From NCBI RefSeq assembly GCF_044324785.1, contig NZ_CP172127.1: a DNA stretch of 64,000 nucleotides, one strand, 5' to 3'. Source of the DNA: Escherichia coli (GTDB taxonomy: Bacteria > Pseudomonadota > Gammaproteobacteria > Enterobacterales > Enterobacteriaceae). The notes beneath the pieces are model-generated. The model was not told the origin of the DNA, did no database searches, and worked only from the letters and a program-made list of their open reading frames with translations. Below are positions 1-51,113 of this stretch, piece by piece (within the stretch, counting starts at the first letter, position 1; each line of letters begins with the position of its first letter). The position numbers were made by a program, and so were the translations under genes.

Positions 1-57
1 CAGTTTCGCGAAATGAAACTGATGCGTAACCCGGGGTGTGAGGTGTGTGGGCAGTAA
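1..57 (+). CDS. moeB: MoeB (molybdopterin-synthase adenylyltransferase), 3-prime end only
   Basis: In-frame translation QFREMKLMRNPGCEVCGQ then TAA at 55-57 matches the MoeB C-terminus as I recall it; K-12 gene order places moeB next to fsaA. Confidence 0.7.
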   Translation, partial: QFREMKLMRNPGCEVCGQ

Positions 58-130
58 TTGCCACCTCAGGCCAGATAAGACGTAGCAGGCATCGGTGCAC
101 TCCGCCACGTCATCAGCAATTTATGAAGAT

Positions 131-160
131 GCAGAACGTCCGGTTAAATCGACGTTCTGC
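131..160. terminator. 10-bp inverted repeat (gcagaacgtc...gacgttctgc) between convergent moeB and fsaA; overlaps the fsaA stop codon
   Basis: Inverted repeat read directly from the sequence; no strong U-tract on either side. Confidence 0.35.
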
Positions 161-806
161 CAAACGCTCCCAGCCAGTCCTGTTCAAACTTCGCCACAGC
201 GGCATCAACCGCCGGATAGCTAATCATCTGTTGTGCCACATCCAGCGGCAGAGTAATTGATTCACACCCTGCCAGTAAGCAGTCCAGCGCCTGACGCGGG
301 GTTTTGAAACTCGCGGCTAACACTTTCGCCTGCGGCGCATGCATTTTCAATAACTGGTGTAAGTCGGTCACAGTCTGAATACCGCTACCGCCCTGAGCAT
401 CAATACGATTAACGTAAGGCGCAACATATTCCGCACCTGCCAGCGCCGACAGCAGCCCTTGTGCTGCGCCATATACCGCGGTTCCCAGCGTCGGAATCCC
501 TTCCGCTTTTAACATCTTAATAGCTGCCAGCCCCTCGGCGGTCACCGGAACTTTCACCACGATATCCGCAATAATAGAACGCAATTTACGTGCGTCATTC
601 ACCATCCCTTCAGCAGTGGTAGCCATTACCTGGGCAAACAGACGCCCCTGACCGCCCATCGCTTCATGAAGTTCCGGAAGCACAACCTCCAGCGGTTTTT
701 TACCCGCGGCGATAATGCTTGGGTTAGTGGTCACACCCGCCAGCGGAAAAATACGTGACAGCGCCTTCACCGCAACAACGTCTGAAGTATCCAGATACAG
801 TTCCAT
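144..806 (-). CDS. fsaA: fructose-6-phosphate aldolase 1
   Basis: ORF 144..878 (-); internal start [10 protein letters not shown] at 806 gives 220 aa; transaldolase-like sequence recognised as FsaA. Confidence 0.9.
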
Positions 807-936
807 AACCATCCTCAAAATGTACTTTTTGTCTGAATGTAGACTATCACGGGAAAACTCTCTGAACAGTTGACGCACATCAATCTAACTTTCATTCGAA
901 AGTATTTTAATGTTTGAACGAAACAGAGAGGCAACT

Positions 937-1836
937 ATGATTTTCAATATTCAGCGCTACTCGACCCATGATGGCCCCGGTATCCGCACGGTCGTATTTC
1001 TTAAAGGCTGTTCGCTGGGCTGCCGCTGGTGTCAGAACCCGGAAAGCCGCGCCCGCACGCAGGATCTGCTGTATGACGCACGTCTGTGTCTGGAAGGCTG
1101 CGAGCTGTGCGCTAAGGCCGCGCCGGAAGTGATTGAGCGCGCGCTGAATGGCTTGCTTATTCATCGGGAAAAGTTAACCCCGGAGCATCTGACAGCGTTA
1201 ACCGACTGCTGCCCGACACAGGCGTTAACCGTATGTGGTGAAGTGAAAAGCGTTGAGGAGATAATGAAGACCGTTCTGCGCGATAAACCGTTTTACGATC
1301 GCAGCGGCGGCGGCTTAACGCTTTCTGGCGGTGAACCCTTTATGCAGCCGGAAATGGCGATGGCGCTACTGCAAGCCAGCCACGAGGCCGGCATTCATAC
1401 TGCGGTAGAAACCTGTCTGCATGTGCCGTGGAAATATATCACCCCTTCTCTGCCCTATATCGATCTGTTTCTTGCCGATTTAAAACACGTTGCCGACGCA
1501 CCGTTTAAACAGTGGACCGACGGTAATGCCGCCAGGGTGCTGGATAACCTGAAAAAACTCGCCGCAGCGGGCAAAAAAATCATTATCCGCGTGCCGCTGA
1601 TTCAGGGCTTTAATGCCGACGAAACCTCTGTAAAAGCCATTACCGATTTTGCCGCCGACGAGCTGCACGTTGGCGAAATTCATTTCCTGCCCTACCACAC
1701 GCTGGGCATCAACAAATATCACTTACTTAATCTGCCCTATGACGCCCCGGAAAAACCGCTTGATGCGCCAGAACTGCTCGACTTTGCCCAGCAGTATGCC
1801 TGCCAGAAAGGGTTAACCGCGACCTTACGAGGATAA
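937..1836 (+). CDS. ybiY: glycyl-radical enzyme activating enzyme (radical SAM, PflA-like)
   Basis: ORF 910..1836; ATG at 937 has GAGAGG 5 nt upstream; CxxxCxxC radical SAM motif ([14 protein letters not shown]) plus extra Cys clusters. Confidence 0.85.
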
Positions 1837-1841
1837 CAACC

Positions 1842-4274
1842 ATGACCACACTGAAACTGGATACGCTCAGCGACCGCATTAAAGCGCACAAAAATGCGCT
1901 GGTGCATATTGTGAAACCGCCGGTCTGTACCGAGCGCGCGCAGCACTATACTGAGATGTATCAACAACATCTCGATAAGCCGATCCCGGTACGTCGCGCG
2001 CTGGCGCTGGCGCATCACCTGGCGAATCGCACCATCTGGATCAAGCACGATGAGTTGATCATTGGCAACCAGGCAAGCGAAGTTCGCGCCGCGCCGATCT
2101 TCCCGGAATATACCGTCTCCTGGATCGAAAAAGAGATTGATGATCTGGCGGATCGTCCGGGTGCTGGTTTTGCGGTGAGCGAAGAGAACAAACGTGTTCT
2201 GCATGAAGTGTGCCCTTGGTGGCGCGGTCAGACGGTACAGGATCGCTGCTACGGCATGTTTACCGATGAGCAAAAAGGTCTGCTGGCGACCGGAATCATT
2301 AAAGCGGAAGGCAATATGACCTCCGGCGATGCGCACCTGGCGGTGAATTTCCCGCTACTGCTGGAAAAAGGTCTTGATGGTCTGCGCGAGAAAGTAGCGG
2401 AACGTCGCTCGCGCATCAACCTGACGGTGCTGGAAGATTTGCACGGCGAGCAGTTCCTGAAAGCGATTGATATCGTGCTGGTGGCAGTCAGTGAACACAT
2501 TGAACGTTTCGCTGCCCTGGCGCGTGAAATGGCAGCCACTGAAACCCGCGAAAGCCGTCGCGATGAACTGCTGGCGATAGCAGAAAACTGCGATCTTATC
2601 GCCCACCAGCCGCCGCAGACTTTCTGGCAGGCGCTGCAACTGTGCTACTTCATCCAGTTGATTTTGCAGATCGAATCTAACGGTCACTCGGTATCGTTTG
2701 GTCGTATGGACCAGTATCTCTACCCGTACTATCGCCGCGACGTTGAACTGAACCAGACACTGGATCGTGAACACGCCATCGAGATGCTGCATAGCTGCTG
2801 GTTAAAATTGCTGGAAGTGAACAAAATCCGCTCCGGCTCGCACTCGAAAGCCTCTGCGGGAAGTCCGCTGTATCAGAACGTCACCATTGGCGGACAAAAT
2901 CTGGTTGATGGTCAACCAATGGACGCGGTGAATCCACTCTCTTACGCGATCCTCGAATCCTGCGGTCGCCTGCGTTCTACTCAGCCTAACCTCAGCGTGC
3001 GTTACCATGCAGGAATGAGCAACGATTTCCTCGACGCCTGCGTACAGGTGATCCGCTGCGGCTTCGGGATGCCGGCGTTCAACAACGACGAAATCGTCAT
3101 CCCGGAATTTATTAAACTCGGTATTGAACCGCAGGACGCTTACGACTATGCAGCGATTGGTTGTATCGAAACCGCCGTCGGTGGCAAATGGGGCTATCGC
3201 TGTACCGGCATGAGCTTTATCAACTTCGCCCGCGTGATGCTGGCGGCGCTGGAAGGCGGGCGTGATGCCACCAGCGGCAAAGTGTTCCTGCCACAAGAAA
3301 AAGCGTTGTCAGCGGGTAACTTCAACAACTTCGATGAAGTAATGGACGCATGGGATACGCAAATCCGTTACTACACGCGTAAATCAATCGAAATCGAATA
3401 TGTCGTCGACACCATGCTGGAAGAGAACGTACACGATATTCTCTGCTCGGCGCTGGTGGATGACTGTATTGAGCGAGCGAAAAGTATCAAGCAAGGCGGC
3501 GCTAAATATGACTGGGTTTCTGGCCTGCAGGTCGGCATTGCTAACCTCGGCAACAGCCTGGCGGCAGTGAAGAAACTGGTATTTGAACAGGGCGCGATTG
3601 GTCAGCAACAGCTGGCTGCCGCACTGGCGGATGACTTCGACGGCCTGACTCACGAGCAGCTGCGTCAGCGGCTGATTAACGGTGCGCCTAAGTACGGCAA
3701 CGACGATGATACTGTCGATACGCTGCTGGCTCGCGCTTATCAGACCTATATCGACGAACTAAAACAGTACCATAACCCGCGCTATGGTCGTGGTCCGGTT
3801 GGCGGCAATTATTACGCGGGTACGTCATCTATCTCCGCTAACGTACCCTTTGGCGCGCAGACGATGGCAACGCCGGACGGGCGTAAAGCCCACACCCCGC
3901 TGGCAGAAGGCGCTAGTCCGGCCTCCGGTACTGATCATCTTGGCCCTACTGCGGTCATTGGCTCAGTGGGTAAACTGCCTACGGCCGCGATTCTCGGCGG
4001 CGTGTTGCTCAACCAGAAACTGAATCCGGCAACGCTGGAGAACGAATCTGACAAGCAGAAACTGATGATCCTGCTACGCACCTTCTTTGAAGTGCATAAA
4101 GGCTGGCATATTCAGTACAACATCGTTTCCCGCGAAACGCTGCTGGAAGCGAAAAAACATCCGGATCAGTACCGCGATCTGGTAGTGCGTGTCGCGGGTT
4201 ATTCCGCCTTCTTCACTGCGCTCTCTCCAGACGCACAGGACGATATCATCGCCCGTACTGAACATATGCTGTAA
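1842..4274 (+). CDS. ybiW: glycyl radical enzyme, pyruvate formate-lyase family (PflF/YbiW)
   Basis: 810 aa; C-terminal glycyl radical motif RVAGYSAFF; immediately downstream of its activase. Confidence 0.9.
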
Positions 4275-4419
4275 CTCTTCCGCCCGGCGGCCACCGTCGC
4301 CGGGCCAAATCATTCACATCATCAATTTCATCCTCGCTTTCATTCGAAATATAATTTGTGCTCTGCGTCACATTGTTATTACACTGTTACGGTTTCATTT
4401 TCGAGCCAGGAGCACACCT

Positions 4420-5235
4420 ATGAGCGTAAAAGTTATCGTCACAGACATGGACGGTACTTTTCTTAACGACGCCAAAACGTACAACCAACCACGTTTTATG
4501 GCGCAATATCAGGAACTGAAAAAGCGCGGCATTAAGTTCGTTGTCGCCAGCGGTAATCAGTATTACCAGCTTATTTCGTTCTTTCCTGAGCTAAAGGATG
4601 AGATCTCTTTTGTCGCGGAAAACGGCGCACTGGTTTACGAACATGGCAAGCAACTGTTCCACGGCGAACTGACCCGACATGAATCGCGGATTGTTATTGG
4701 CGAGTTGCTAAAAGATAAGCAACTCAATTTTGTCGCCTGCGGTCTGCAAAGTGCATATGTCAGCGAAAACGCCCCCGAAGCATTCGTCGCACTGATGGCA
4801 AAACACTACCATCGCCTGAAACCTGTAAAAGATTATCAGGAGATTGACGACGTACTGTTCAAGTTTTCGCTCAACCTGCCGGATGAACAAATCCCGTTAG
4901 TGATCGACAAACTGCACGTAGCGCTCGACGGCATTATGAAGCCGGTTACCAGTGGTTTTGGCTTTATCGACCTGATTATTCCTGGCCTGCATAAAGCGAA
5001 TGGTATTTCGCGGTTACTGAAACGCTGGGATCTGTCACCGCAAAATGTGGTAGCGATTGGCGACAGCGGTAACGATGCGGAGATGCTGAAAATGGCGCGT
5101 TATTCCTTTGCGATGGGCAATGCTGCGGAAAACATTAAACAAATCGCCCGTTACGCTACCGATGATAATAATCATGAAGGCGCGCTGAATGTGATTCAGG
5201 CGGTGCTGGATAACACATCCCCTTTTAACAGCTGA
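4420..5235 (+). CDS. ybiV: HAD-family sugar phosphatase
   Basis: Internal ATG at 4420 of ORF 4189..5235; N-terminal HAD motif VTDMDGTFL; 271 aa. Confidence 0.9.
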
Positions 5236-5242
5236 CCTCTCT

Positions 5243-5278
5243 ACCGGAGCTATGCGCTCCGGTTTTCCCTTCTTTTTA
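5243..5278 (+). terminator. rho-independent terminator after ybiV
   Basis: Hairpin ccggagctatgcgctccgg followed by a T-rich tract. Confidence 0.55.
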
Positions 5279-5386
5279 CATCCTTTACATCACATCAAAT
5301 CATTAAACTTCCATTAACTTATTTATAACTTATATTGTCACATGCAAATCAGCATAGTTTCGAATGAAAGTTAATGCGAGGTGGTT

Positions 5387-6652
5387 ATGGCTTCTACTTT
5401 TACCAGCGACACATTGCCTGCCGATCACAAAGCAGCTATCCGTCAGATGAAGCACGCGCTGCGGGCGCAGCTTGGCGACGTCCAGCAGATCTTTAATCAG
5501 CTAAGCGATGACATTGCCACGCGAGTGGCTGAAATCAACGCACTCAAAGCACAGGGCGATGCCGTCTGGCCGGTGCTGTCTTATGCCGATATCAAAGCAG
5601 GTCATGTTACTGCAGAGCAGCGCGAACAAATTAAACGTCGCGGTTGTGCGGTGATAAAAGGCCATTTCCCCCGCGAACAAGCGCTAGGCTGGGATCAGTC
5701 GATGCTGGACTATCTGGACCGCAACCGCTTTGACGAGGTCTACAAAGGCCCCGGCGATAATTTCTTCGGGACACTCAGCGCTTCACGTCCCGAGATTTAC
5801 CCCATCTACTGGTCGCAGGCGCAAATGCAGGCCCGCCAGAGTGAAGAAATGGCGAATGTGCAGTCGTTTCTCAATCGTCTGTGGACATTTGAAAGTGATG
5901 GAAAGCAATGGTTTAACCCGGATGTGAGCGTCATCTACCCTGACCGTATCCGCCGCCGTCCGCCCGGAACGACCTCCAAAGGTCTTGGAGCGCATACCGA
6001 CTCCGGGGCGCTGGAACGCTGGCTGCTTCCAGCGTATCAGCACGTTTTCGCCAACGTCTTTAATGGCAATCTGGCGAAATACGATCCCTGGCATGCGGCA
6101 CATCGTACGGAAGTTGAAGAGTACACGGTGGACAACACCACCAAATGTTCCGTGTTTCGGACATTCCAGGGCTGGACAGCGCTCTCTGATATGCTGCCTG
6201 GTCAGGGGTTGCTGCACGTCGTGCCCATTCCTGAAGCCATGGCGTACGTACTGTTACGTCCGCTGCTTGATGATGTGCCGGAGGATGAACTGTGCGGCGT
6301 AGCGCCCGGAAGAGTGTTGCCGGTATCAGAGCAATGGCATCCACTGTTAATTGAGGCGTTAACCAGCATTCCAAAACTCGAGGCCGGAGACTCCGTCTGG
6401 TGGCACTGCGACGTCATCCATTCCGTTGCCCCCGTTGAAAATCAACAGGGTTGGGGCAACGTGATGTACATTCCTGCGGCACCGATGTGCGAGAAAAATC
6501 TTGCCTACGCGCACAAGGTGAAGGCCGCACTGGAAAAAGGCGCATCGCCGGGCGACTTCCCGCGCGAGGACTATGAAACAAACTGGGAAGGACGCTTTAC
6601 GCTTGCCGACCTCAACATTCACGGTAAGCGAGCGTTGGGAATCGACAGCTGA
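5387..6652 (+). CDS. ybiU: DUF1479-family protein YbiU
   Basis: ORF 5381..6652; ATG at 5387 has GAGG upstream; 421 aa recognised as YbiU. Confidence 0.85.
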   Translation: MASTFTSDTLPADHKAAIRQMKHALRAQLGDVQQIFNQLSDDIATRVAEINALKAQGDAVWPVLSYADIKAGHVTAEQREQIKRRGCAVIKGHFPREQALGWDQSMLDYLDRNRFDEVYKGPGDNFFGTLSASRPEIYPIYWSQAQMQARQSEEMANVQSFLNRLWTFESDGKQWFNPDVSVIYPDRIRRRPPGTTSKGLGAHTDSGALERWLLPAYQHVFANVFNGNLAKYDPWHAAHRTEVEEYTVDNTTKCSVFRTFQGWTALSDMLPGQGLLHVVPIPEAMAYVLLRPLLDDVPEDELCGVAPGRVLPVSEQWHPLLIEALTSIPKLEAGDSVWWHCDVIHSVAPVENQQGWGNVMYIPAAPMCEKNLAYAHKVKAALEKGASPGDFPREDYETNWEGRFTLADLNIHGKRALGIDS

Positions 6653-7722
6653 GTGTCGTACAGCCCTTCCCGTTCCACGGCGGTGTTCCCTTTTCCTGGG
6701 CGAACCCGCCGCACTGACTCCCGCACCGCCAATCGTCCGTGCAGCAGCAGCGAGCCCACCGGAGCATCCGGGCGAATCAGCCGCTGTTGCAACATTTGCA
6801 CCGCTTCATTGCCTAGCTCATCGCGTGGCACATGCACAGCCGTCAGGGGAACATCCTCGATTGCCGCAAGGTTAAAGCCGTCGATACTCATCACCGAGAC
6901 ATCCTGTGGTACGCGCAGACCACGACGATGTAGCGCATTTACCGTTCCCGCCGCCATAAAATCCCCGCCGACCAGAAACGCCGTCGGCAACGTCTTGCCA
7001 TTGGCGGCATCCAGCCACGCTCCGACCTTTTCTTCCGCTTCTTTAGCGCTAAAACTGCTGATATTCAGCAAATGACGGTCATGGTGAAAGGCCAGATTAT
7101 GCTGACGCCATGATTCTTTAATCCCTGCAAACCGCTGCTCCATAGTGTAGCGGCGCAGGCACATCACATTCATCACCTCCCGGTGACCCATTTCAAACAG
7201 ATAGCGGGCGGCGAACGCGCCAATTAACCGATGGTCCGGCGCAATCGCCGGGAGGCGCATTCGTTCATCACGGCAGTTGATCAGCACACAAGGCTTAGCG
7301 AGATCGGCGGCCAGATCATGGATGTGCGGATCGTCAATCCCCAGCAGGATCGCCGCCTGCGTATCTGCTTCATTCATCCGCGAGAGAAATAGCGCGGGAT
7401 CGCTGTCAAACTCCTCCAGCGCGCAGTAACGCAGCCGCACTTCATGCGGCGATAACGCTTTGCTGATGCTCTGGATCACACGGTAATAAAAGATATCAGA
7501 TCGTTGGTCAAAAGCGCGTTGCGGCGCGAAAATAATCAGGTTGTTCAGCAACATACGACCTGCTGCCATGCCATCCATCACGCCCAACTCACGCGCGCAG
7601 GCCAGCACCTGTTCGCGAGCGCGTGCACTGGTATTCGCTTTGCCAGCCAGCACCCGCGAAACCGTACTCGGCGATAGCCCGGTACGTGCGGCGATATCGG
7701 CGATTTTCAGCTTCTTGTCCAT
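6619..7722 (-). CDS. LacI-family transcriptional regulator (accessory locus)
   Basis: ORF 6619..7800 (-); likely start MDKKLKIADIAARTGLSPSTVSRVL (HTH at N-terminus) at 7722; periplasmic-binding-protein-like core; 3-prime end overlaps ybiU by 34 bp. Confidence 0.8.
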   Translation of the reverse strand: MDKKLKIADIAARTGLSPSTVSRVLAGKANTSARAREQVLACARELGVMDGMAAGRMLLNNLIIFAPQRAFDQRSDIFYYRVIQSISKALSPHEVRLRYCALEEFDSDPALFLSRMNEADTQAAILLGIDDPHIHDLAADLAKPCVLINCRDERMRLPAIAPDHRLIGAFAARYLFEMGHREVMNVMCLRRYTMEQRFAGIKESWRQHNLAFHHDRHLLNISSFSAKEAEEKVGAWLDAANGKTLPTAFLVGGDFMAAGTVNALHRRGLRVPQDVSVMSIDGFNLAAIEDVPLTAVHVPRDELGNEAVQMLQQRLIRPDAPVGSLLLHGRLAVRESVRRVRPGKGNTAVEREGLYDTQLSIPNARLP

Positions 7723-8016
7723 TTTGTGATCTGCCTCTAATTCGGAAATGACAGAATTTTCATGAGCAAAAAAGCCCATTCTGTCTGGCATTAAATCCAT
7801 TTCAGTAATGTATATCAGTCACTCATGGAAAAACGTGCACAAAACCCGCTTTCTTTCGCTTTTAGGGTCTCTTACTGTGAATTGGTAGAACAACTTCCAT
7901 ACAAAAATAATGGAAAAACGAACAACAAAGACTTTATTTATCAAAAAGTTAAAAGTGGTGTGACAACTCCATTCTGACGTTGCCGCACAAACCCTATACC
8001 ATTCTGTGGAGTGCAT

Positions 8017-9318
8017 ATGAGTCAGGGTATCAATAACGATATGACTGCCAGTAAACCGCGCCATATCGTCAAAAATCTGCGTTGGTGGATACTGGTCCTT
8101 TTTTTGCTCGGTGTTACTGTCAACTACATCACGCGTAACTCGCTGGGTATTCTCGCCCCCGAACTGAAAAGCAGCCTGGGGATTACCACCGAACAATATT
8201 CCTGGATTGTAGGTGCTTTCCAGCTCGCCTATACCCTATTCCAACCGTTGTGCGGATGGCTGATTGACGTCATTGGCCTCAAACTGGGCTTTATGATCTG
8301 CGCGGGACTGTGGGCACTGGCCTGTCTGATGCATGCGGGGGCGGGAAACTGGGTACATCTGGCGCTGTTGCGCTTCTTTATGGGCGGTGCGGAAGCCGCA
8401 GCAACCCCAGCAAACGCCAAAACCATCGGTGAATGGTTTCCAAAATCAGAACGCCCGATCGCCGCAGGCTGGGCAGGCGTCGGTTTTTCCATCGGTGCCA
8501 TGCTGGCCCCACCGATTATCTATTTTGCCCACGCTTCATTCGGCTGGCAGGGTGCATTTATGTTCACTGGCATCCTGGCGATGCTGTGGGTCGTGCTGTG
8601 GTGGGCGTTCTATCACAGCCCGGATAAGCATCCTAACCTCAGCAAAGCCGAGCTGGACTTTATTCGCCAGGATAACGAAGCGCCCCCGGTCAAGTTACCC
8701 TTTCTGACCGCACTGAAAACCGTGGGCAAAAATAAACGCTTTTACGGTATCGCTATCCCGGCCTTTATGGCAGAACCGGCGTGGGCGGTGATGAGTTTCT
8801 GGGTTCCGCTATACCTGTCCAAAACCTATGGCATGGACCTGAAGCAGATCGCATTATTCGCCTGGTTGCCGTTCCTCGCCGCTGATCTTGGCAGTATTGC
8901 CAGCGGCTATCTGACCAAACTTTACACCCGCCTGTTTGGGCTGAGTCGTGTGAACTCCGTTGTCGCATCATCGGTCAGTGGCGCATTCCTGATGGTTTCG
9001 CTGGCGGTGATGGCCTTTACCAATAACCCGTATATCGCCATCGTCCTTATCTCCATCGGCGGCTTCGGTCACCAGATCATCTCCTGCATGCTAAGCGCAC
9101 TGGTGGTGGAATCCTTCGACAAAGGTCAGATGGCCACTGTTAACGGCATGCGCGGTTCTGCCGCGTGGATCGCAAGTTTCCTGTTCTCCCTGATAATCGG
9201 GGTTACCGCAGACAAAATCGGCTTTAACCCCCTGTTTATCGCCATGGGCTTCTTTGACCTGATTGGCGCTTTCTTCCTGGTCACCTTTATTGCTGAACGT
9301 CGCGCAAAACGCGCCTGA
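8017..9318 (+). CDS. MFS transporter, anion:cation symporter family, ExuT (hexuronate transporter)-like
   Basis: ORF 8011..9318; ATG at 8017 has GGAG 5 nt upstream; N-terminal region aligns by eye with ExuT (LRWW..TRN...QYSWI...GEWFPKSER...IGAMLAPPI). Confidence 0.8.
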   Translation: MSQGINNDMTASKPRHIVKNLRWWILVLFLLGVTVNYITRNSLGILAPELKSSLGITTEQYSWIVGAFQLAYTLFQPLCGWLIDVIGLKLGFMICAGLWALACLMHAGAGNWVHLALLRFFMGGAEAAATPANAKTIGEWFPKSERPIAAGWAGVGFSIGAMLAPPIIYFAHASFGWQGAFMFTGILAMLWVVLWWAFYHSPDKHPNLSKAELDFIRQDNEAPPVKLPFLTALKTVGKNKRFYGIAIPAFMAEPAWAVMSFWVPLYLSKTYGMDLKQIALFAWLPFLAADLGSIASGYLTKLYTRLFGLSRVNSVVASSVSGAFLMVSLAVMAFTNNPYIAIVLISIGGFGHQIISCMLSALVVESFDKGQMATVNGMRGSAAWIASFLFSLIIGVTADKIGFNPLFIAMGFFDLIGAFFLVTFIAERRAKRA

Positions 9319-9332
9319 GAGTGGATGTAAAC

Positions 9333-11696
9333 ATGAAAACGCTGAAAAACTGGACCCTGCACAAACAGTCTGCCCACCACGTTGAACTGCTGGTCGATGG
9401 CCAGCATATCCTGTGCCTGTACGTGCTGGAAGAAAATCTGTTCCGCGTGCTGTTAAAACGCAAAGGCGAGCTGGCGCTGGATCGCACCTGGAGCATTGCT
9501 CCGGCGCAGGATGTGCCATGGGAAGGGCGCAGCCGCGAAGATCTCAGCGGCTTTAGCCTGCCCGCGTGGACATTGATCCAGCACGACGACACCGTGGTTA
9601 TCGCCACCGAGTCACTGCGTGTCACCGTTCACCAGCCGCTGTGGCTGGAGTGGCACTATCGTAACAACGAAGGCGAATGGCTGCCGTTGGTGAATGACCG
9701 CCCGACCAGCGCTTATCTGCTGAATGCCCACGGCGATGGCGTGGCACACTATCAGAGCCGTCGTAAAGATGAACGCTTTTATGGCCTCGGAGATAAAGCC
9801 GGCGACCTGCAACGCAACGGTAAACGTTACGAGATGCGTAACCTCGACGCGATGGGCTACAACGCCGTTAGTACTGACCCGCTGTACAAACACATTCCAT
9901 TCACCATCACCCGCCGCGATGACATTAGCTTCGGCCTGTTTTATGACAACCTCAGCAGCTGCTGGCTGGATCTGGGCAACGAGATCGACAACTACCACAC
10001 CGCCTATCGCCGCTGGCAGGCGGAAGCGGGTGATATCGACTACTACCTGTTTACCGGCGAACGCGTACTTGATATCACCAAAGCCTTCGTACGCCTGACC
10101 GGAAAAACCCTGTTCGGACCGAAATGGAGCCTGGGCTACAGCGGTTCAACTATGCACTACACCGATGCGCCGGACGCACAAAATCAGTTGATGAACTTTA
10201 TCCGCCTGTGTGAAGAACATGCAATTCCCTGCGATTCGTTCCAGCTCTCTTCCGGTTATACCTCAATTAACGGCAAACGCTATGTGTTCAACTGGAACTA
10301 CGACAAAGTGCCGCAGCCGAAAGTGATGAGCCAGGCATTTCACAATGCTGGTTTGCACCTGGCCGCCAATATCAAGCCGTGCCTGTTGCAGGATCACCCA
10401 CGCTATAACGAAGTGGCAGAAAGAGGACTGTTCATCCGTGATTCAGAAACAGATGAACCAGAACGTTCCAGCTTCTGGGATGACGAAGGTTCTAACCTCG
10501 ACTTTACTAATCCGCAGACCATCCAGTGGTGGCAGGAAGGCGTGACCACACAGCTTCTGGAGATGGGTATCGACTCCACCTGGAACGACAACAACGAATT
10601 CGAAGTATGGGACGGTGAAGCACGCTGTCACGGCTTTGGTCAGACGATCGCGATCAAACATATTCGCCCAGTGATGCCACTGCTGATGATGCGAGCCTCG
10701 ATGGAAGCCCAGCAGCGTTTCGCTCCGGAAAAACGTCCGTACTTGATCTCCCGCTCCGGCTGCGCGGGAATGCAGCGCTACGTGCAGACCTGGAGTGGCG
10801 ATAACCGCACTAGCTGGGACACTCTGCGCTACAACACCCGCATGGGTCTGGGGATGAGCCTCTCCGGGTTGTATAACCTCGGTCACGACGTCGGCGGTTT
10901 CTCCGGTGATAAACCGGACCCGGAACTGTTTGTACGCTGGGTACAAAACGGCGTGATGCATCCGCGCTTTACGATTCACTCATGGAACGATGACCATACC
11001 GTAAACGAACCGTGGATGTATCCGGGCGTCACTCCGGCGATCCGCAGCGCTATTGAGTTGCGCTATCGCCTGCTGCCCTACTTTTATACCCTGATGTGGC
11101 AGGCATACGCCGATGATGAACCAATGCTACGTCCGACTTTCCTTGACCACGAGCACGACGTTCAGACTTTTGAAGAGTGTGATGACTTCCTGCTTGGTCG
11201 CGATATTTTGGTTGCCAGCGTCGTAGAGCAAGGCGAGCGCCAGCGCCGTGTATGGCTGCCAGATAACGAAACTGGCTGGTACGATTTCTACAACGGCGAA
11301 TGGTTCAGTGGCGGTCAGTGGATCACCCTCGACGCACCGCTGGAGAAACTGCCGCTGATGGTGCGTGCCGGGGCTGGTCTACCGCTCAGCAAACGCATCA
11401 CCTATGTGAGCGCAGAACAAGACGATACCCGCGAACTGAAACTGTTCCCGCTGAAAGGTGTGGGCACAACGTCCGGCCTGCTGTTTGAAGACGATGGCGA
11501 AAGCTGGGGCTACCAAACTGGTAATGCGCTTTGGGTGGAATGGGAAATGGTTTGCGATGGGGCGACCATCAACCTGAAAGTCAACGCGCGCGGGGATTAT
11601 CGTCCTGCATGGAGTGCACTGAAAGTGTCATTACCATTGGAAGAAAAACGCACGCTGCTGGTCAATGGTGTTGAAGGGAGTGAATGGATGCGTTAA
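9333..11696 (+). CDS. glycoside hydrolase family 31 (alpha-glycosidase), specificity unknown
   Basis: ORF 9321..11696 (GTG at 9321 or ATG at 9333); GH31 motifs GIDSTWNDNNE (nucleophile region) and RSGCAGMQRYVQTWSGDNRTSW (acid/base region). Confidence 0.8.
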   Translation: MKTLKNWTLHKQSAHHVELLVDGQHILCLYVLEENLFRVLLKRKGELALDRTWSIAPAQDVPWEGRSREDLSGFSLPAWTLIQHDDTVVIATESLRVTVHQPLWLEWHYRNNEGEWLPLVNDRPTSAYLLNAHGDGVAHYQSRRKDERFYGLGDKAGDLQRNGKRYEMRNLDAMGYNAVSTDPLYKHIPFTITRRDDISFGLFYDNLSSCWLDLGNEIDNYHTAYRRWQAEAGDIDYYLFTGERVLDITKAFVRLTGKTLFGPKWSLGYSGSTMHYTDAPDAQNQLMNFIRLCEEHAIPCDSFQLSSGYTSINGKRYVFNWNYDKVPQPKVMSQAFHNAGLHLAANIKPCLLQDHPRYNEVAERGLFIRDSETDEPERSSFWDDEGSNLDFTNPQTIQWWQEGVTTQLLEMGIDSTWNDNNEFEVWDGEARCHGFGQTIAIKHIRPVMPLLMMRASMEAQQRFAPEKRPYLISRSGCAGMQRYVQTWSGDNRTSWDTLRYNTRMGLGMSLSGLYNLGHDVGGFSGDKPDPELFVRWVQNGVMHPRFTIHSWNDDHTVNEPWMYPGVTPAIRSAIELRYRLLPYFYTLMWQAYADDEPMLRPTFLDHEHDVQTFEECDDFLLGRDILVASVVEQGERQRRVWLPDNETGWYDFYNGEWFSGGQWITLDAPLEKLPLMVRAGAGLPLSKRITYVSAEQDDTRELKLFPLKGVGTTSGLLFEDDGESWGYQTGNALWVEWEMVCDGATINLKVNARGDYRPAWSALKVSLPLEEKRTLLVNGVEGSEWMR

Positions 11697-31735: not shown

Positions 31736-31764
31736 GCCCGTCCGTTACTGGACGGGCTTTTTTG
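31736..31764 (+). terminator. rho-independent terminator downstream of ybiJ
   Basis: gcccgtccgttactggacgggc followed by ttttttg. Confidence 0.7.
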
Positions 31765-32473
31765 TGCACAGAAAACCCCCAGCTAGGCTGGGGGTTCCGG
31801 AAAGCTTTCAGCTTTGAGCCAGTTATTAAAACCCCTTTTGATTTGTTAAAACACCTTGCGGTCTGGCAACTGCAAGTGTCAAACAAGAAATCAAAAGGGG
31901 GTCCCAATGGGGGACGAAAAGAGCTTAGCGCACACCCGCTGGAACTGTAAATATCACATAGTTTTTGCGCCGAAATACCGAAGACTGGCGTTTTACGGAG
32001 AGAAGCGTAGGGCGATAGGCAGTATTTTGAGAAAGCTGTGTGAGTGGAAAAGCGTACGGATTCTGGAAGCAGAGTGCTGCGCAGATCATATCCATATGCT
32101 TGTGGAAATCCCACCCAAAATGAGCGTATCCGGCTTTATGGGATATCTGAAAGGGAAAAGCAGTCTGATGCTTTACGAGCAGTTTGGGGATTTGAAATTC
32201 AAATACAGAAACAGGGAGTTCTGGTGCCGAGGGTACTATGTCGATACGGTGGGTAAGAACACGGCGAAGATACAGGACTACATAAAGCACCAGCTTGAAG
32301 AGGATAAAATGGGGGAGCAGTTATCGATTCCATATCCGGGCAGCCCGTTTACGGGCCGTAAGTAACGAAGTTGAATGCAAATGTCAGATCGTATGCGCCT
32401 GTTAGGGCGCGGCTGGTAACAGAGCCTTACAGGCGCATTTGAAAAACCTCCGGCTATGCCGGAGGATATTTAT
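31758..32473 (+). mobile_element. IS200 insertion sequence (ends approximate)
   Basis: Y1 transposase gene flanked by similar subterminal hairpins (cccccagc-tag-gctggggg at 31776-31794 and cctccggc-tat-gccggagg at 32447-32465); RBS-sequestering stem-loop at 31829-31904; about 0.7 kb. Confidence 0.75.
31907..32365 (+). CDS. tnpA: IS200 transposase TnpA (Y1/HUH)
   Basis: ORF 31856..32365; start MGDEKSLAHTRWNC at 31907 (152 aa); HUH motif HIHMLVEI and catalytic Tyr region. Confidence 0.9.
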   Translation: MGDEKSLAHTRWNCKYHIVFAPKYRRLAFYGEKRRAIGSILRKLCEWKSVRILEAECCADHIHMLVEIPPKMSVSGFMGYLKGKSSLMLYEQFGDLKFKYRNREFWCRGYYVDTVGKNTAKIQDYIKHQLEEDKMGEQLSIPYPGSPFTGRK

Positions 32474-33694
<1,221 letters not shown>

Positions 33695-36874: not shown

Positions 36875-37010
36875 TTGTGGCATTTTTCGGTTTTCAGGGG
36901 TAATGGTTTTTCTGTTTCTGGAAAGCGGCTCGCAATAACGTTTTCTGGAAGTGAGATTTTCCCGCAGCAGAAGAAACATCATTGCGTAGTAAAAGACAAT
37001 GCACGCAGGC

Positions 37011-37292
37011 TTATTGCGCTGGTGGCCATTGCAGGGCGGTATGCAAAACACGCAGTACCGAGAGCGTATCGCCCTCCACTTGGTAGATCAGCACATAATG
37101 CGGTCTGACAACGGCTTCATGAGTGCCAGCGACTCGTCCGGCCCGATACATCTGCGGGCGTTCACAAACCTGTTCCGCAATGGCTTCAAATTGATTATCA
37201 AGGGCAATTGCCGCTTGCGGATTATCTTTACTGATGTATACCATGATTTGCTCCCTGTCAGACAGGGACATTGGCTTCCATTCCAGACGCAT
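37011..37292 (-). CDS. RelE/ParE-family toxin (ParE-like), 93 aa
   Basis: Pattern typical of ParE/RelE-fold toxins (YISKDNPQAA ... YVLIYQVEGDTLSVLRVLHTALQWP); start ATG overlaps the upstream stop (TAATG). Confidence 0.7.
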   Translation of the reverse strand: MRLEWKPMSLSDREQIMVYISKDNPQAAIALDNQFEAIAEQVCERPQMYRAGRVAGTHEAVVRPHYVLIYQVEGDTLSVLRVLHTALQWPPAQ

Positions 37293-37732
37293 TAATCCCC
37301 CTTCAACAAGGCTTTTTTACGGGCAGCAAATAGACTTTTGGCCTCTTCATGAGAGAGCGCTGGGCGTGGATCGTCAATGGCGGCCTGCACCTGCTCTCGA
37401 AACCAGGCATCATACGCGGCAGCTTCATGAGCTCGTTTTAATGCCTCTGCCCTGTCAGGTCGGGTCGTTTTCTTCTGACCATCCGGGTCGTAATTAGAGG
37501 CGTCGACTTCAAACCGGGCAATACCAACATCTTTCAGGTAGTTGACAACCGTTTCCAGCCGTTTGAACAGGCGGATTTGCCGACTGCGTTGTGCTGCAAG
37601 AGGCCGTTCAGTGTGGCCGTATTTCACGGTCAACGACCAGCCTCCCTGGGTGCCAATAACGTGTGCTGCATCCACTACGCCAGACTCAACCAGTTTATGT
37701 AAGGTTGAGTGATCGATCGTTTCTGGTGCCAT
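37292..37732 (-). CDS. putative antitoxin partner of the ParE-like toxin, atypically long (146 aa), function unknown
   Basis: Coupled to the toxin gene by a 1-nt overlap; AGAGG about 10 nt upstream of the ATG; no confident family assignment by eye. Confidence 0.55.
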   Translation of the reverse strand: MAPETIDHSTLHKLVESGVVDAAHVIGTQGGWSLTVKYGHTERPLAAQRSRQIRLFKRLETVVNYLKDVGIARFEVDASNYDPDGQKKTTRPDRAEALKRAHEAAAYDAWFREQVQAAIDDPRPALSHEEAKSLFAARKKALLKGD

Positions 37733-37768
37733 AATGCGCTAACCTCTTTGTATACAGCATGCAATTTA

Positions 37769-37812
37769 TAATTAAAGATAGCGCAATTAATAATTAAAGA
37801 TAGCGCAATTAA
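37769..37812. repeat. perfect tandem direct repeat, 2 x 22 bp, in the promoter region of the toxin-antitoxin-like operon
   Basis: taattaaagatagcgcaattaa at 37769-37790 and again at 37791-37812, 37-80 bp upstream of the start at 37732; candidate operator. Confidence 0.6.
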
Positions 37813-37909
37813 TAATAAATTGCATTTTTTGATCGTAAATTGTCCAGGGTGAAATTGCGGTAGAAAGAGACTTGTTGCGAAGATGCCGGGCATCGCCCGG
37901 CATAAAAAG

Positions 37910-48636: not shown

Positions 48637-49086
48637 CTAATGAAAAAAACGCGTATGCCTTTGCCAGACAAGCGTTATCGCTATTGCTGCAAGAATCCCA
48701 AAGAAGCCGATAAAATAGTAATAGAGTGTTAATGCACCTGTAACAGCGCAACGAACCGGACTCCACAATTCTTCGCTATGGCATTTTCCTGCCAGTTCAA
48801 GGAGCTTATTTCGTCCATGCGAGATAATGCCTGACCATAAAACAATCATTAAGCAACTTATTACCCAAATGGGCCGTTCACTCATTAATGCGGCATTCAC
48901 GATGATCACCAGGGCCAACCCTGTCAACGTCATCATAATGATAAAACGGTGAGAACCAGGATCAACATTAAATAATAAACCGGCCAGCATACTGATTAAA
49001 AACATCGCGCCCGCAGTGCTGAACACAAGGATAATGGCAGATACAGGAAGTGACTGCTCCCCGTCCTGTCGGGCGAGGCTTCCCAC
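48637..49086 (-). pseudogene. ybhM: ybhM (BAX-inhibitor/YccA family), C-terminal fragment; upper boundary approximate (about 49030)
   Basis: Minus-strand ORF whose TM-rich sequence continues the N-terminal fragment at 50769..51113; separated from it by the tnpA/tnpB element. Confidence 0.65.
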
Positions 49087-49089
49087 TTC

Positions 49090-50259
49090 TTAAGCCGCAA
49101 CCGTCTGTGTGACGGATTTATGCTGGCCTCCATGGGCAGAAACGACGAGTCCCGCCGCTTGTAATTCCAGTATGCCCTTGCGTTTGATGTTGAGCGCCGC
49201 GTTGATATCGCGGTCATGTTCAACTCCACACTCTGGACACTGCCAGATGCGCTTACGTAATGGCATCTCCGACATTTTGTGACCGCAGCAGTGGCAGGTT
49301 TTCGAACTGGCGAACCATTGATCCAGTTTCACCAGATGCACACCTTTCTCTGCTGCTTTATATTCCAGTTTTGTGATGAATCCAGACCATCCAGCATCGC
49401 CTATCGCACGAGCCAGATGGTGATTTTTCATCATATTTGCCGTTTTCAATTTCTCGACAATTACCGCTTGGTTTTCGTCAACAATTGCGCGAGATAACTT
49501 GTGCTGGAAATCGGCACGGGCACTGGCTACCCGTTCGTGAACGGCTGCAAGTTGTATTCTGGCTTTGCGCCTGTTTGCGCTCCCTTTTTTCTTACGGGAC
49601 AGTGCTTTCTGCTTCCGGCGCAGGTTGCGACTTGCATTGATTAGGTGGCGGGGACTGGCAATTTTATTGCCGTCCGATTTGATGACAAAATGCGCCAGCC
49701 CCATATCCAGCCCTGTCACATTTGATATCAGTGCGGGCTTTGCCGGCGCTTCCATCCCGTCGTCACAGAGTAACGACGCGTAGTATTTCCCGGTTGCGCT
49801 GCGGCTCAACGTGATACTTTTCAGCATTCCCGTAATTTCACGATGTAAACGCGCTTCAATCGGCAAGATTTTCGGTATTTTTATCGCACCATCAAGGACT
49901 TTTATGCCAACACAATGATAGCTCGATTGTCTGCCGTGTTTACTTTTAAAGGTAGGTTTACCTGCTTTCAGTTTCGGATTGAAAAAGTTAGAAAAAGCCA
50001 CGTCGAGGTTAATTACCGCCTGCTGCAACGCAATAGAATCATATTCTTTAAGCCATCCATACCGGCGGGATTTCTTCGCCACTGCAAGCAGTGGTTTGAG
50101 GTCTTTACGCGGGTTTAAATTTACGCGGTGCCGCTGGTAAGAATGTTTCTTGATATGCAGAGCTTTGTTGTACGCAAAACGCACTGCACCGAACTGGGCG
50201 TTGATAAATTCAGCCTGTTCTGGTGTCGGGTAGATGCGTACTTTTGTTGCTCTTAACAT
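49090..50259 (-). CDS. tnpB: TnpB (IS605-family OrfB; RuvC-like RNA-guided endonuclease)
   Basis: 389 aa; RuvC-I GLDMG, zinc finger CHCCG...CPECG, RuvC-III HDRDINAALN; apparently intact. Confidence 0.85.
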   Translation of the reverse strand: MLRATKVRIYPTPEQAEFINAQFGAVRFAYNKALHIKKHSYQRHRVNLNPRKDLKPLLAVAKKSRRYGWLKEYDSIALQQAVINLDVAFSNFFNPKLKAGKPTFKSKHGRQSSYHCVGIKVLDGAIKIPKILPIEARLHREITGMLKSITLSRSATGKYYASLLCDDGMEAPAKPALISNVTGLDMGLAHFVIKSDGNKIASPRHLINASRNLRRKQKALSRKKKGSANRRKARIQLAAVHERVASARADFQHKLSRAIVDENQAVIVEKLKTANMMKNHHLARAIGDAGWSGFITKLEYKAAEKGVHLVKLDQWFASSKTCHCCGHKMSEMPLRKRIWQCPECGVEHDRDINAALNIKRKGILELQAAGLVVSAHGGQHKSVTQTVAA

Positions 50260-50315
50260 AATCAGCGCTCATTGATATAATGCTTTTATTTTAACACTTT
50301 AGGTGAATATATCAA

Positions 50316-50741
50316 TTGAGTAATCATGATGATTTACTGGCGGGATTTCTCCGCAAACGACACAGTGTCAGTAAGCTGGTTGTGCACCTTATTTTTACGA
50401 CAAAGTATCGACGCAAACTATTCGACAGTCAGATGATCGCTCAGTTGCGTGAGGCTTTTGGCTCCGCTGCGGCAAAGCTTGAATGCGAAATTATTGAGAT
50501 GGACGGGGAGCCAGACCATGTACACCTGCTGGTGGCCTACCCGCCAAAACTGGCGGTCAGTGTGATGGTCAATAATTTAAAATCGGTATCATCACGTTTG
50601 CTACGCCAGCAGAACGCGCATTTACGTATGCAGAGTAAAACGGGGCTTTTGTGGTCGAGATCGTACTTTGTCTGTAGCACCGGAGGGGCAACGATTGAAA
50701 CGCTCAGAGCCTACGTTCAGAGTCAGTCAACACCTGATTGA
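50316..50741 (+). CDS. tnpA: IS200/IS605-family transposase TnpA (Y1/HUH)
   Basis: 141 aa; HUH motif HVHLLV; C-terminal Tyr in RAYVQSQ. Confidence 0.85.
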   Translation: MSNHDDLLAGFLRKRHSVSKLVVHLIFTTKYRRKLFDSQMIAQLREAFGSAAAKLECEIIEMDGEPDHVHLLVAYPPKLAVSVMVNNLKSVSSRLLRQQNAHLRMQSKTGLLWSRSYFVCSTGGATIETLRAYVQSQSTPD

Positions 50742-50768
50742 TCTTTAAAGCCCTGCGGGCTTTTCGCC

Positions 50769-51113
50769 TTATATCCCCGCCCGCATTGGGCGAGGGTTTA
50801 CGGCGTTTTTCGCTAAACTTGCAACGACAATCGCCACCAAAGAGAGTAAAAACAGATATATTACGCCTGCGATGGCGGCATTTATCTTGTTGATATCCTT
50901 ACTTAAGCCATACATACAAAGTAATAATAACCCTATGGCGACATACATTGGTGGTGAATCATATTTGGTTGCCGTAATTTCGAGATACTTAGCTCCCCAG
51001 GCCAGTCCTGCGGTTGCCACCAAACCTAAAGCGGTAATGAGCCATATACCGTTTAATATCCTGGCCTCGTGCTGAAAATCTAATTTATTGCTGTTTTGCG
51101 AGTATGATTCCAT
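50769..51113 (-). pseudogene. ybhM: ybhM N-terminal fragment; the reading frame runs into the IS end and stops
   Basis: ORF 50769..51140 (-); start MESYSQNSNKLDF at 51113; last codons (NPRPMRAGI) overlie the IS subterminal hairpins. Confidence 0.65.

Follow-up and report, generated by a model that had tools for sequence, protein, structure and literature searches.

Which reaction does the glycyl radical enzyme YbiW of Escherichia coli catalyse, and do the genes around it share in the same function? The question was raised by a reading made from the letters alone (hereafter the sequence-only reading) of a 64,000-nucleotide stretch of E. coli DNA (contig NZ_CP172127.1, assembly GCF_044324785.1; hereafter the window), in which ybiW and the radical S-adenosylmethionine (SAM) activase gene ybiY are accompanied by fsaA, encoding fructose-6-phosphate aldolase 1, and by ybiV, encoding a sugar phosphatase. 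The answer reached here, which we consider highly probable, is that the locus serves anaerobic catabolism of 1,5-anhydroglucitol (1,5-AG), a sugar-alcohol derivative present in food, by a ‘radical-mediated glycolysis’ with AND-gate control by the regulators FNR and YciT.

The substrate question is already solved in the literature and the function of the locus already known, to the extent relayed by a review (PMC12441222). In its account of the primary work, 1,5-AG and 1,5-anhydromannitol are phosphorylated by the phosphotransferase system (PTS) before the radical step, and YbiW and PflD then cleave 1,5-AG-6-phosphate (1,5-AG6P) and 1,5-anhydromannitol-6-phosphate (1,5-AM6P), respectively, to yield 1-deoxyfructose-6-phosphate (Ma et al. 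JACS 2024, via PMC12441222). As described there, the reaction is glycyl-radical-dependent and oxygen-sensitive, and the route enables growth of E. coli and many gut bacteria on 1,5-AG (PMC12441222). The view of the sequence-only reading that the substrate was ‘not firmly settled’ was thus out of date, given the assignment published in 2024 and the Protein Data Bank (PDB) deposits named YbiW (8ID7, 8YJN) and PflD (8YJO). RefSeq names for YbiW are still ‘glycyl radical protein’ or ‘putative pyruvate formate lyase’, and this lag of the annotation behind the literature explains why the question appeared open. The argument from the neighbours was well founded and foreshadowed what was then published: they had been taken to point to an anaerobic sugar or sugar-phosphate transformation, such as the review describes for 1,5-AG6P, and the reaction of YbiW is related to its neighbours because its product can serve an aldolase as substrate. 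The interpretation as a whole was partly supported.

Genes were placed by open reading frame (ORF) listing and by family (profile) scans against curated cut-offs (Table 1). Positions 1-8000 of the window are ordinary E. coli chromosome, with matches in 5,425 of 5,426 complete E. coli genomes (best identity 98.6%), and the reference annotation over them lists fsa, ybiY, ybiW, ybiV and ybiU. The products of fsaA, ybiY, ybiW and ybiV are 98-100% identical to the proteins of E. coli K-12, with four residue differences in YbiW (806 of 810 identical), two in YbiY, none in YbiV and four in FsaA (from 0 to 5 across the five proteins including YbiU). In K-12 the same fsaA and ybiY-ybiW genes (b0825, b0824 and b0823) occur in the same order and orientation; only two of the 130 bases between fsaA and ybiY differ from this strain, with the FNR box and the operator described below being identical. 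The locus is the K-12 locus itself, and hence a member of an already known system. The tight ybiY-ybiW operon that had been claimed was confirmed, both genes being on the plus strand and separated by 5 bp. As to the claimed flanking by fsaA and ybiV, both are indeed neighbours, yet fsaA lies outside the span 937..5235 assigned to the cluster and on the opposite strand, divergent from ybiY across the 130-bp intergenic region, and ybiV is set behind a 145-bp spacer that contains a strong hairpin and a promoter-like region of its own.

By its match to TIGR01774, YbiW is assigned to the PFL2-3 (dehydratase/eliminase) subfamily of glycyl radical enzymes. As recognized by the sequence-only reading, it carries an RVAGY motif (residues 783-787, with Gly785; nucleotides 4188..4202, plus strand); the Pfam models PF02901 (PFL-like; 697 bits) and PF01228 (Gly_radical; 113 bits, residues 688-792) were matched as well. 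YbiY, likewise correctly recognized as a radical SAM activase, has a CX3CX2C motif at residues 25-32 and a second Cys cluster at residues 51-58. The Cys loop of YbiW reads GCIE (residues 440-443; nucleotides 3159..3170, plus strand), with Glu443 two residues after Cys441, which we take to be the thiyl-radical site, and with no Cys-Cys pair in this active-site loop. A single Cys with a Glu two residues on marks the dehydratase/eliminase class, whereas pyruvate formate-lyase has a Cys-Cys pair. Among solved structures, YbiW matched ‘Probable dehydratase YbiW’ (8ID7/8YJN) over its full length with 1855 bits and, more distantly, ‘Probable dehydratase PflD’ (8YJO), while its best non-orthologous solved relatives were B12-independent glycerol and diol dehydratases.

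These properties bear on what the legacy names imply, namely that YbiW is a pyruvate or 2-ketoacid formate-lyase isoenzyme to which the aldolase and phosphatase neighbours are irrelevant, a notion in keeping with the name ‘Formate C-acetyltransferase’ given to a near-identical protein in PDB entry 6XS4. However, YbiW is under the cut-off of every equivalog model, and far so for NF007437 (582 versus 1109 bits) and TIGR01255 (160.8 versus 994.2 bits); no equivalog model of YbiW itself was present in NCBIfam. Taken together with the GCIE loop, the dehydratase relatives and the activity on anhydroglucitol-6-phosphate relayed by the review, this leaves a formate-lyase role barely conceivable and already effectively refuted.

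The TIGR01774 subfamily also includes the B12-independent glycerol dehydratase (1R8W), diol dehydratase (5I2A), CutC choline trimethylamine (TMA)-lyase and hydroxyproline dehydratase. With these 1,2-eliminases YbiW shares the Gly loop, the Cys-x-Glu loop and a dedicated activase with extra Fe-S cluster motifs, as well as the predicted course of the reaction, in which a radical is generated by abstraction beside a hydroxyl and a beta leaving group is then lost. The difference lies in the leaving group, which for YbiW would be the ring ether oxygen of a cyclic polyol phosphate, leading to ring opening, whereas the others lose water, amine or sulfite; moreover, YbiW is far under the cut-offs of the equivalog models of the known 1,2-eliminases. 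By analogy, the logic of ring opening would be the same as that of glycerol dehydratase, choline TMA-lyase and hydroxyproline dehydratase.

In the pathway that we propose, the PTS would take up 1,5-AG while phosphorylating it to the 6-phosphate, YbiY would install the radical on Gly785 of YbiW, and the thiyl radical at Cys441 would abstract the hydrogen at C2, next to the hydroxyl. The alpha-hydroxy radical so formed would expel the C1-O5 ring oxygen, giving the open-chain 2-keto, 1-methyl product 1-deoxyfructose-6-phosphate, and a mechanism through a C2 radical explains how a single product is obtained from both C2 epimers. FsaA would then cleave this product in the retro-aldol direction into glyceraldehyde-3-phosphate, which enters glycolysis, and hydroxyacetone. 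Reportedly, it is FsaA or FsaB that splits the product into these two compounds, and GldA is said to reduce hydroxyacetone to 1,2-propanediol. The FsaA of this strain is above the cut-off of TIGR00875 (282 versus 246 bits), has the Schiff-base Lys85 (in DIVVK) and matches PDB 1L6W with an E value of 2.5e-136. Fructose-6-phosphate aldolase (FSA) accepts hydroxyacetone as donor; its physiological role has been called enigmatic and its chromosomal expression is very low (PMC7767278).

The gene neighbourhood was compared among 80 loci, one per species, with a YbiW identity of at least 85% and ranging from Escherichia to Yersinia, Serratia and Brenneria. ybiY adjoins ybiW in all 80 species, 61 of the 78 loci that could be assessed have fsaA in divergent orientation, and ybiV is found downstream in 58 of 74; both are present at 44 loci, fsaA alone at 12, ybiV alone at 12 and neither at four. 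The link to fsaA extends further out (Brenneria, Serratia, Buttiauxella and Mangrovibacter) than that to ybiV. The arrangement, being standard in E. coli and kept across genera, is more than chance. In the Klebsiella and Raoultella loci (for example, locus L030) fsaA is missing and moeB abuts ybiY, with the FNR box and the operator retained; the aldolase step must come from elsewhere in these genomes.

A paralogous set exists in E. coli K-12, where gldA-fsaB-ptsA is divergent from frwCB-pflD-pflC-frwD (the 1,5-AM6P branch), with identities of 38% between YbiW and PflD, 36% between YbiY and PflC and 70% between FsaA and FsaB. According to the review, the product at the pflD locus is the same 1-deoxyfructose-6-phosphate as that of YbiW (PMC12441222). 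A radical enzyme, an activase and an aldolase are thus paired twice in one genome, which represents independent evidence of a functional tie. The pflD locus has its own PTS components and gldA, whereas the ybiYW locus has a HAD phosphatase and ybiU instead. Neither an FNR box nor the TTTC-N4-GAAA operator was found in the ptsA-frwC intergenic region, thus the two anhydro-sugar loci are differently regulated.

An expanded island is seen in Rouxiella aceris (locus L068, 5074..19056), which harbours ybiU with a yciT-like gene, fsaA divergent from ybiYW, a second yciT-like gene, a ROK kinase, a GldA-like iron-dependent alcohol dehydrogenase, an MFS transporter and a PtsG-like EIICB; this gene set matches the functions required by the published pathway. 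An operator-like site, TTTCATATGAAA, is present at 17334 of the same locus, upstream of the MFS gene.

As for the regulation of the locus, the FNR box at 870..883, located in the intergenic region between the divergent fsaA and ybiY, is the sole match to TTGAYNNNNATCAA in the whole window. Its half-sites TTGA/TCAA are kept in 72 of the 80 species, even in those without fsaA, while the central four bases vary freely. An FNR peak labelled ‘ybiY/fsaA’ was reported from both chromatin immunoprecipitation (ChIP)-seq and ChIP-chip with the motif TTGATGTGCGTCAA (Myers 2013; PMC3688515 Tables S5 and S6), and this motif is the reverse complement of the box. On the ybiY side, the centre of the box is ~34.5 bp from the conserved TTTAAT, and class II FNR geometry would set the start of ybiY transcription near 918, with FNR at about −41.5; on the other side, the conserved position of the putative extended −10 suggests that it works as the fsaA promoter element, with a predicted start of fsaA transcription near 834. 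One FNR dimer could therefore be located near −41.5 of both divergent promoters. Furthermore, in Reg-Seq, a massively parallel reporter study, the ybiY promoter was active only anaerobically, YciT was recovered on this promoter by DNA-affinity pull-down and an ‘unknown activator’ was reported.

The second element of the region is the exact 13-mer CTTTCATTCGAAA, of which the window holds three copies, all in 5′ regions: at 889..901 (ybiY), at 4337..4349 (ybiV) and at 5358..5370 on the minus strand (ybiU). The full operator is the palindrome ACTTTC-N4-GAAAGT. The core TTTC-N4-GAAA precedes ybiV in 57 of 59 species and ybiU in 55 of 57, and in 66 of 67 species 19 bp separate the operator centre from the FNR centre. 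In the 80 loci (1.58 Mb in total), 218 such sites were counted versus ~24 expected, of which 189 are no more than 150 bp upstream of fsaA/ybiY, ybiV or ybiU. The remaining sites were set aside, most being isolated single occurrences or, inside ybiW (window 4126..4137), a chance product of the coding sequence. The central four bases of the operator flip between ATTC and GAAT, as is expected of a symmetric dimer site.

The DeoR-type regulator YciT has ChIP-exo peaks at ybiV, ybiY and fsaA, with expression changes in a yciT deletion (PMC8464067). Along with the FNR peak (PMC3688515) and the anaerobic-only ybiY promoter, these data document co-regulation of the genes that the sequence-only reading had grouped. 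At 11 of the 80 loci (in Serratia, Buttiauxella, Brenneria, Affinibrenneria, Rouxiella and Mangrovibacter among others), genes for orthologues with 58-78% identity to K-12 YciT directly adjoin ybiYW, mostly in the position that ybiV occupies in E. coli; the adjacency of yciT orthologues to ybiYW is new in this analysis. The Serratia cluster is flanked by genes that, read by eye from predicted N-termini, are rnb and lapA/lapB, and rnb and lapA/lapB flank yciT in E. coli K-12. The operator palindrome is a candidate binding site of YciT.

These data also bear on whether ybiV, and perhaps fsaA, stand beside ybiYW by historical accident, as independent transcription units with no functional tie. 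For ybiV this would agree with its promoter-like region, its own terminator and the strong hairpin that separates it from ybiW, with its family, which is one of broad-range HAD phosphatases, and with the absence of ybiV from 16 of 74 loci and of fsaA from 17 of 78. It is at odds with the identical 13-base operator in front of ybiY, ybiV and ybiU and its retention in 57 of 59 ybiV promoters, with the YciT peaks and expression changes at ybiV, ybiY and fsaA, with the FNR box common to fsaA and ybiY at fixed spacing, and with the duplication of the pairing between glycyl radical enzyme and FSA at the pflD locus. An accidental neighbourhood is thus highly improbable.

In the regulatory scheme that we favour for the 1,5-AG route, YciT would sit on ACTTTC-N4-GAAAGT at the ybiY, ybiV and ybiU promoters until repression is lifted by an inducer, which is probably the sugar phosphate itself, as is usual for sensors of the DeoR family. 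FNR would report the absence of oxygen and YciT the presence of substrate, both being needed for expression, and such an AND gate of anaerobiosis and substrate is the likely logic of the locus. The model unites four published observations: the silent binding of FNR, the YciT peaks, the anaerobic-only ybiY promoter with its activator, and the function of the enzyme.

Several points weigh against the 1,5-AG pathway and its AND gate. The aldolase step, and the GldA step after it, are taken from reported work and from the documented donor range of FSA. Seventeen of 78 species (Klebsiella, Raoultella, some Kosakonia and Yersinia) have no fsaA at the locus, so that the aldolase need not be linked in cis. 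A search of the 300 bp upstream of K-12 yciT yielded no operator. The geometry around −41.5 is built on deduced rather than mapped start sites, and Reg-Seq places YciT near −5 and the activator near −20 to −30 of the predicted ybiY start, while a companion preprint puts the activator-like signal at −30 to −15. Lastly, the ybiY/fsaA peak belongs to a group for which expression in glucose minimal medium did not change with FNR (PMC3688515 Table S9). An AND gate with a second, repressive input explains this last point, as FNR would be bound yet silent in glucose medium. As for Reg-Seq, its authors, in the preprint too, themselves suspect that the predicted ybiY start was mis-set; if it is ~20 bp too far upstream, the activator signal is the FNR box, so that a match between the Reg-Seq signals and the FNR box and operator is plausible.

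It could also be that 1,5-AG6P is merely workable in vitro and that the physiological substrate is another sugar or polyol phosphate, which would in addition explain YbiV and YbiU, the two regulon members without an assigned pathway step. Experimental phenotypes of YciT are only osmotic or related to sorbitol (PMC8464067), and the neighbour sets vary among genera. In Yersinia (L081 and L082; 7310..14134), for example, ybiY-ybiW is located between sgrR and a setA-like efflux gene (the sgrS/setA side), with neither FNR box nor operator at ybiYW, in agreement with a 2009 report of ybiYW inserted in the sgrR-sgrS region of this genus; here the genes may be under SgrR, the regulator of sugar-phosphate stress. 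On the other hand, E. coli is reported, in the review's account, to grow on 1,5-AG by the YbiW route (PMC12441222), and the PDB entries stem from the same work; the paralogous system for the C2 epimer has its own PTS and aldolase; and the Rouxiella island combines a PtsG-like transporter or kinase with the radical enzyme, the aldolase and a GldA-like dehydrogenase. A different physiological substrate is therefore unlikely, and 1,5-AG6P is retained as the substrate of YbiW in what follows.

ybiV and ybiU are members of the same conserved regulon as ybiYW, with no pathway step assigned to them in the literature consulted. The operator is present upstream of both, whereas an FNR box is present upstream of ybiV in 0 of 59 species and upstream of ybiU in 0 of 57. 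YbiV has the HAD motifs DMDGT (residues 9-13) and GDSGND (214-219) and matches the solved structures 1RLM/2HF2. For YbiU, which has solved structures 2DBI, 2CSG and 4RGK, an HxD motif (203-205) and H340/H345 are invariant as far as Candida Gig2, and the protein is predicted to have an Fe(II)/2-oxoglutarate dioxygenase-like fold. The model, which was built from 46 orthologues, has a predicted local distance difference test score (pLDDT) of 66 and a predicted template modelling score of 0.71 and serves only for fold-level comparison; a single-sequence AlphaFold model was discarded as unusable (pLDDT 39). In Rouxiella and Mangrovibacter, ybiU lies beside the cluster and is immediately followed by a yciT orthologue.

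A possible, though rather doubtful, extension is that the five genes form a YciT regulon of two arms, one FNR-gated (fsaA and ybiYW) and the other FNR-independent (ybiV and ybiU), which handle the same sugar phosphate, the second arm taking over whenever oxygen disables the radical enzyme. YbiV would then be a phosphatase of 1,5-AG6P (or of 1-deoxyfructose-6-phosphate), acting speculatively as a safety valve like human G6PC3, and YbiU might oxidize the substrate with O2, for example, by hydroxylating C1 beside the ring oxygen to yield glucose-6-phosphate. Oxygen-dependent and oxygen-sensitive enzymes under one substrate-responsive repressor suggest aerobic and anaerobic handling of the same compound; the view of the review that growth on 1,5-AG is probably strictly anaerobic (PMC12441222) argues against an efficient aerobic route. 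There is an analogy to the sugar-phosphate stress response of E. coli (SgrR/SgrS plus the HAD phosphatase YigL), in that YbiV is likewise a Cof-type HAD protein, co-regulated with genes for a non-glycolytic analogue of glucose-6-phosphate. YbiV differs in being under a YciT-type operator instead of SgrS, and an activity on 1,5-AG6P is suggested by analogy only. Human G6PC3 and G6PT dephosphorylate 1,5-AG6P, which is a toxic metabolite in G6PC3 and G6PT deficiency (PMC12441222); if the two-arm arrangement holds, a bacterial phosphatase or oxygenase for 1,5-AG6P would be of some interest in view of these deficiencies.

Table 1. Positions of genes and of candidate regulatory elements in the ybiYW region (window coordinates).
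Feature	Position	Strand	Evidence
fsaA, fructose-6-phosphate aldolase 1, 220 aa	144..806	-	NF009296, 452 bits vs cut-off 306
Putative extended -10 of fsaA promoter, TGnTAnnnT	841..849	-	Fixed 35.5 bp from FNR-box centre in 44/58 fsaA-bearing species
FNR box TTGACGCACATCAA, common to divergent fsaA and ybiY promoters	870..883		9/10 match to TTGAT-N4-ATCAA
Palindromic operator ACTTTCATTCGAAAGT in ybiY promoter, candidate YciT site	888..903		13-mer; kept in 73/80 species
Putative -10 of ybiY promoter, TTTAAT	906..911	+	Conserved block ATTTAAT in cross-species alignment
Second, degenerate operator-like element GTTTGAACGAAA, 22 bp from the first; putative function	912..923		Sequence and alignment
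ybiY, radical SAM glycyl-radical enzyme activase, 299 aa	937..1836	+	TIGR02494, 370.5 bits vs cut-off 174.35
ybiW, glycyl radical enzyme, 810 aa	1842..4274	+	TIGR01774, 1408.9 bits vs cut-off 678.2
GC-rich 10-bp hairpin right after ybiW stop, without U tract	4282..4305	+	-22.1 kcal/mol, z-score -4.7
Operator copy GCTTTCATTCGAAATA in ybiV promoter	4336..4351		Abuts perfect TATAAT at 4350..4355
CRP-like palindrome TGTGC-N6-TCACA in ybiV 5′ region, downstream of operator and TATAAT	4357..4372		TGTG-N8-CACA in 45/59 species
ybiV (supH), Cof-type HAD-IIB sugar phosphatase, 271 aa	4420..5235	+	TIGR00099, 221 bits vs cut-off 137
Intrinsic terminator 3′ of ybiV, 8-bp stem, T-rich tail	5243..5263	+	Terminator scan
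Operator copy AGTTTCGAATGAAAGT just upstream of ybiU ribosome-binding site	5356..5371		13-mer match
ybiU, Gig2-like/DUF1479 protein	5387..6652	+	Family scan

Several of the minor elements in and around these genes were assessed as well. None of 200 shuffled sequences was as stable as the hairpin that follows ybiW, which could be a weak terminator or a stabilizer of the mRNA 3′ end. The CRP-like palindrome was rejected as a class I or class II activator site, its spacing to any plausible −10 being unsuitable. An ORF of 348 residues with a GTG start (4189..5235), which runs from the end of ybiW through ybiV, is an artefact of the ORF caller; ybiV in fact begins with the ATG at 4420, where its start is also placed in K-12 and by RefSeq. 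A scan of positions 1..7000 for sigma-70 promoters yielded six promoter-like matches versus 5.0 expected, that is, chance level, and the match near ybiY was not used as it overlaps the start codon. An Rfam scan of 1..8000 returned one sub-threshold snoRNA-like match only, with no riboswitch or small RNA in the intergenic regions.

Beyond the locus, a three-gene island is present at 6619..11696 between ybiU and ybiT, encoding a LacI-family regulator (minus strand), an MFS protein of the anion:cation symporter type and a GH31 hydrolase; K-12 is without this island, with ybiT directly after ybiU. The idea that the GH31 protein is an alpha-glucan lyase supplying anhydro-sugars was dropped, as the solved structures nearest to this protein are those of ordinary alpha-glucosidases. 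At least 80% of window positions 1-8000 is covered in approximately 4,324 of 5,425 E. coli genomes. Two further segments, 31764..32479 and 36936..37909, fail to align with the closest E. coli genome, which has an IS3 element and an espX2-like type III effector gene there; they are variable spots between ybiJ and hcxB and between dinG and rhlE. Finally, an IS200/IS605-like element at 49050..50816 (tnpA plus a gene for a TnpB/InsQ RNA-guided endonuclease; ISEc46 family in the reference annotation) is inserted elsewhere than in the closest E. coli genome, and the multi-copy and plasmid matches of the window between 28 and 53 kb are due to this element.

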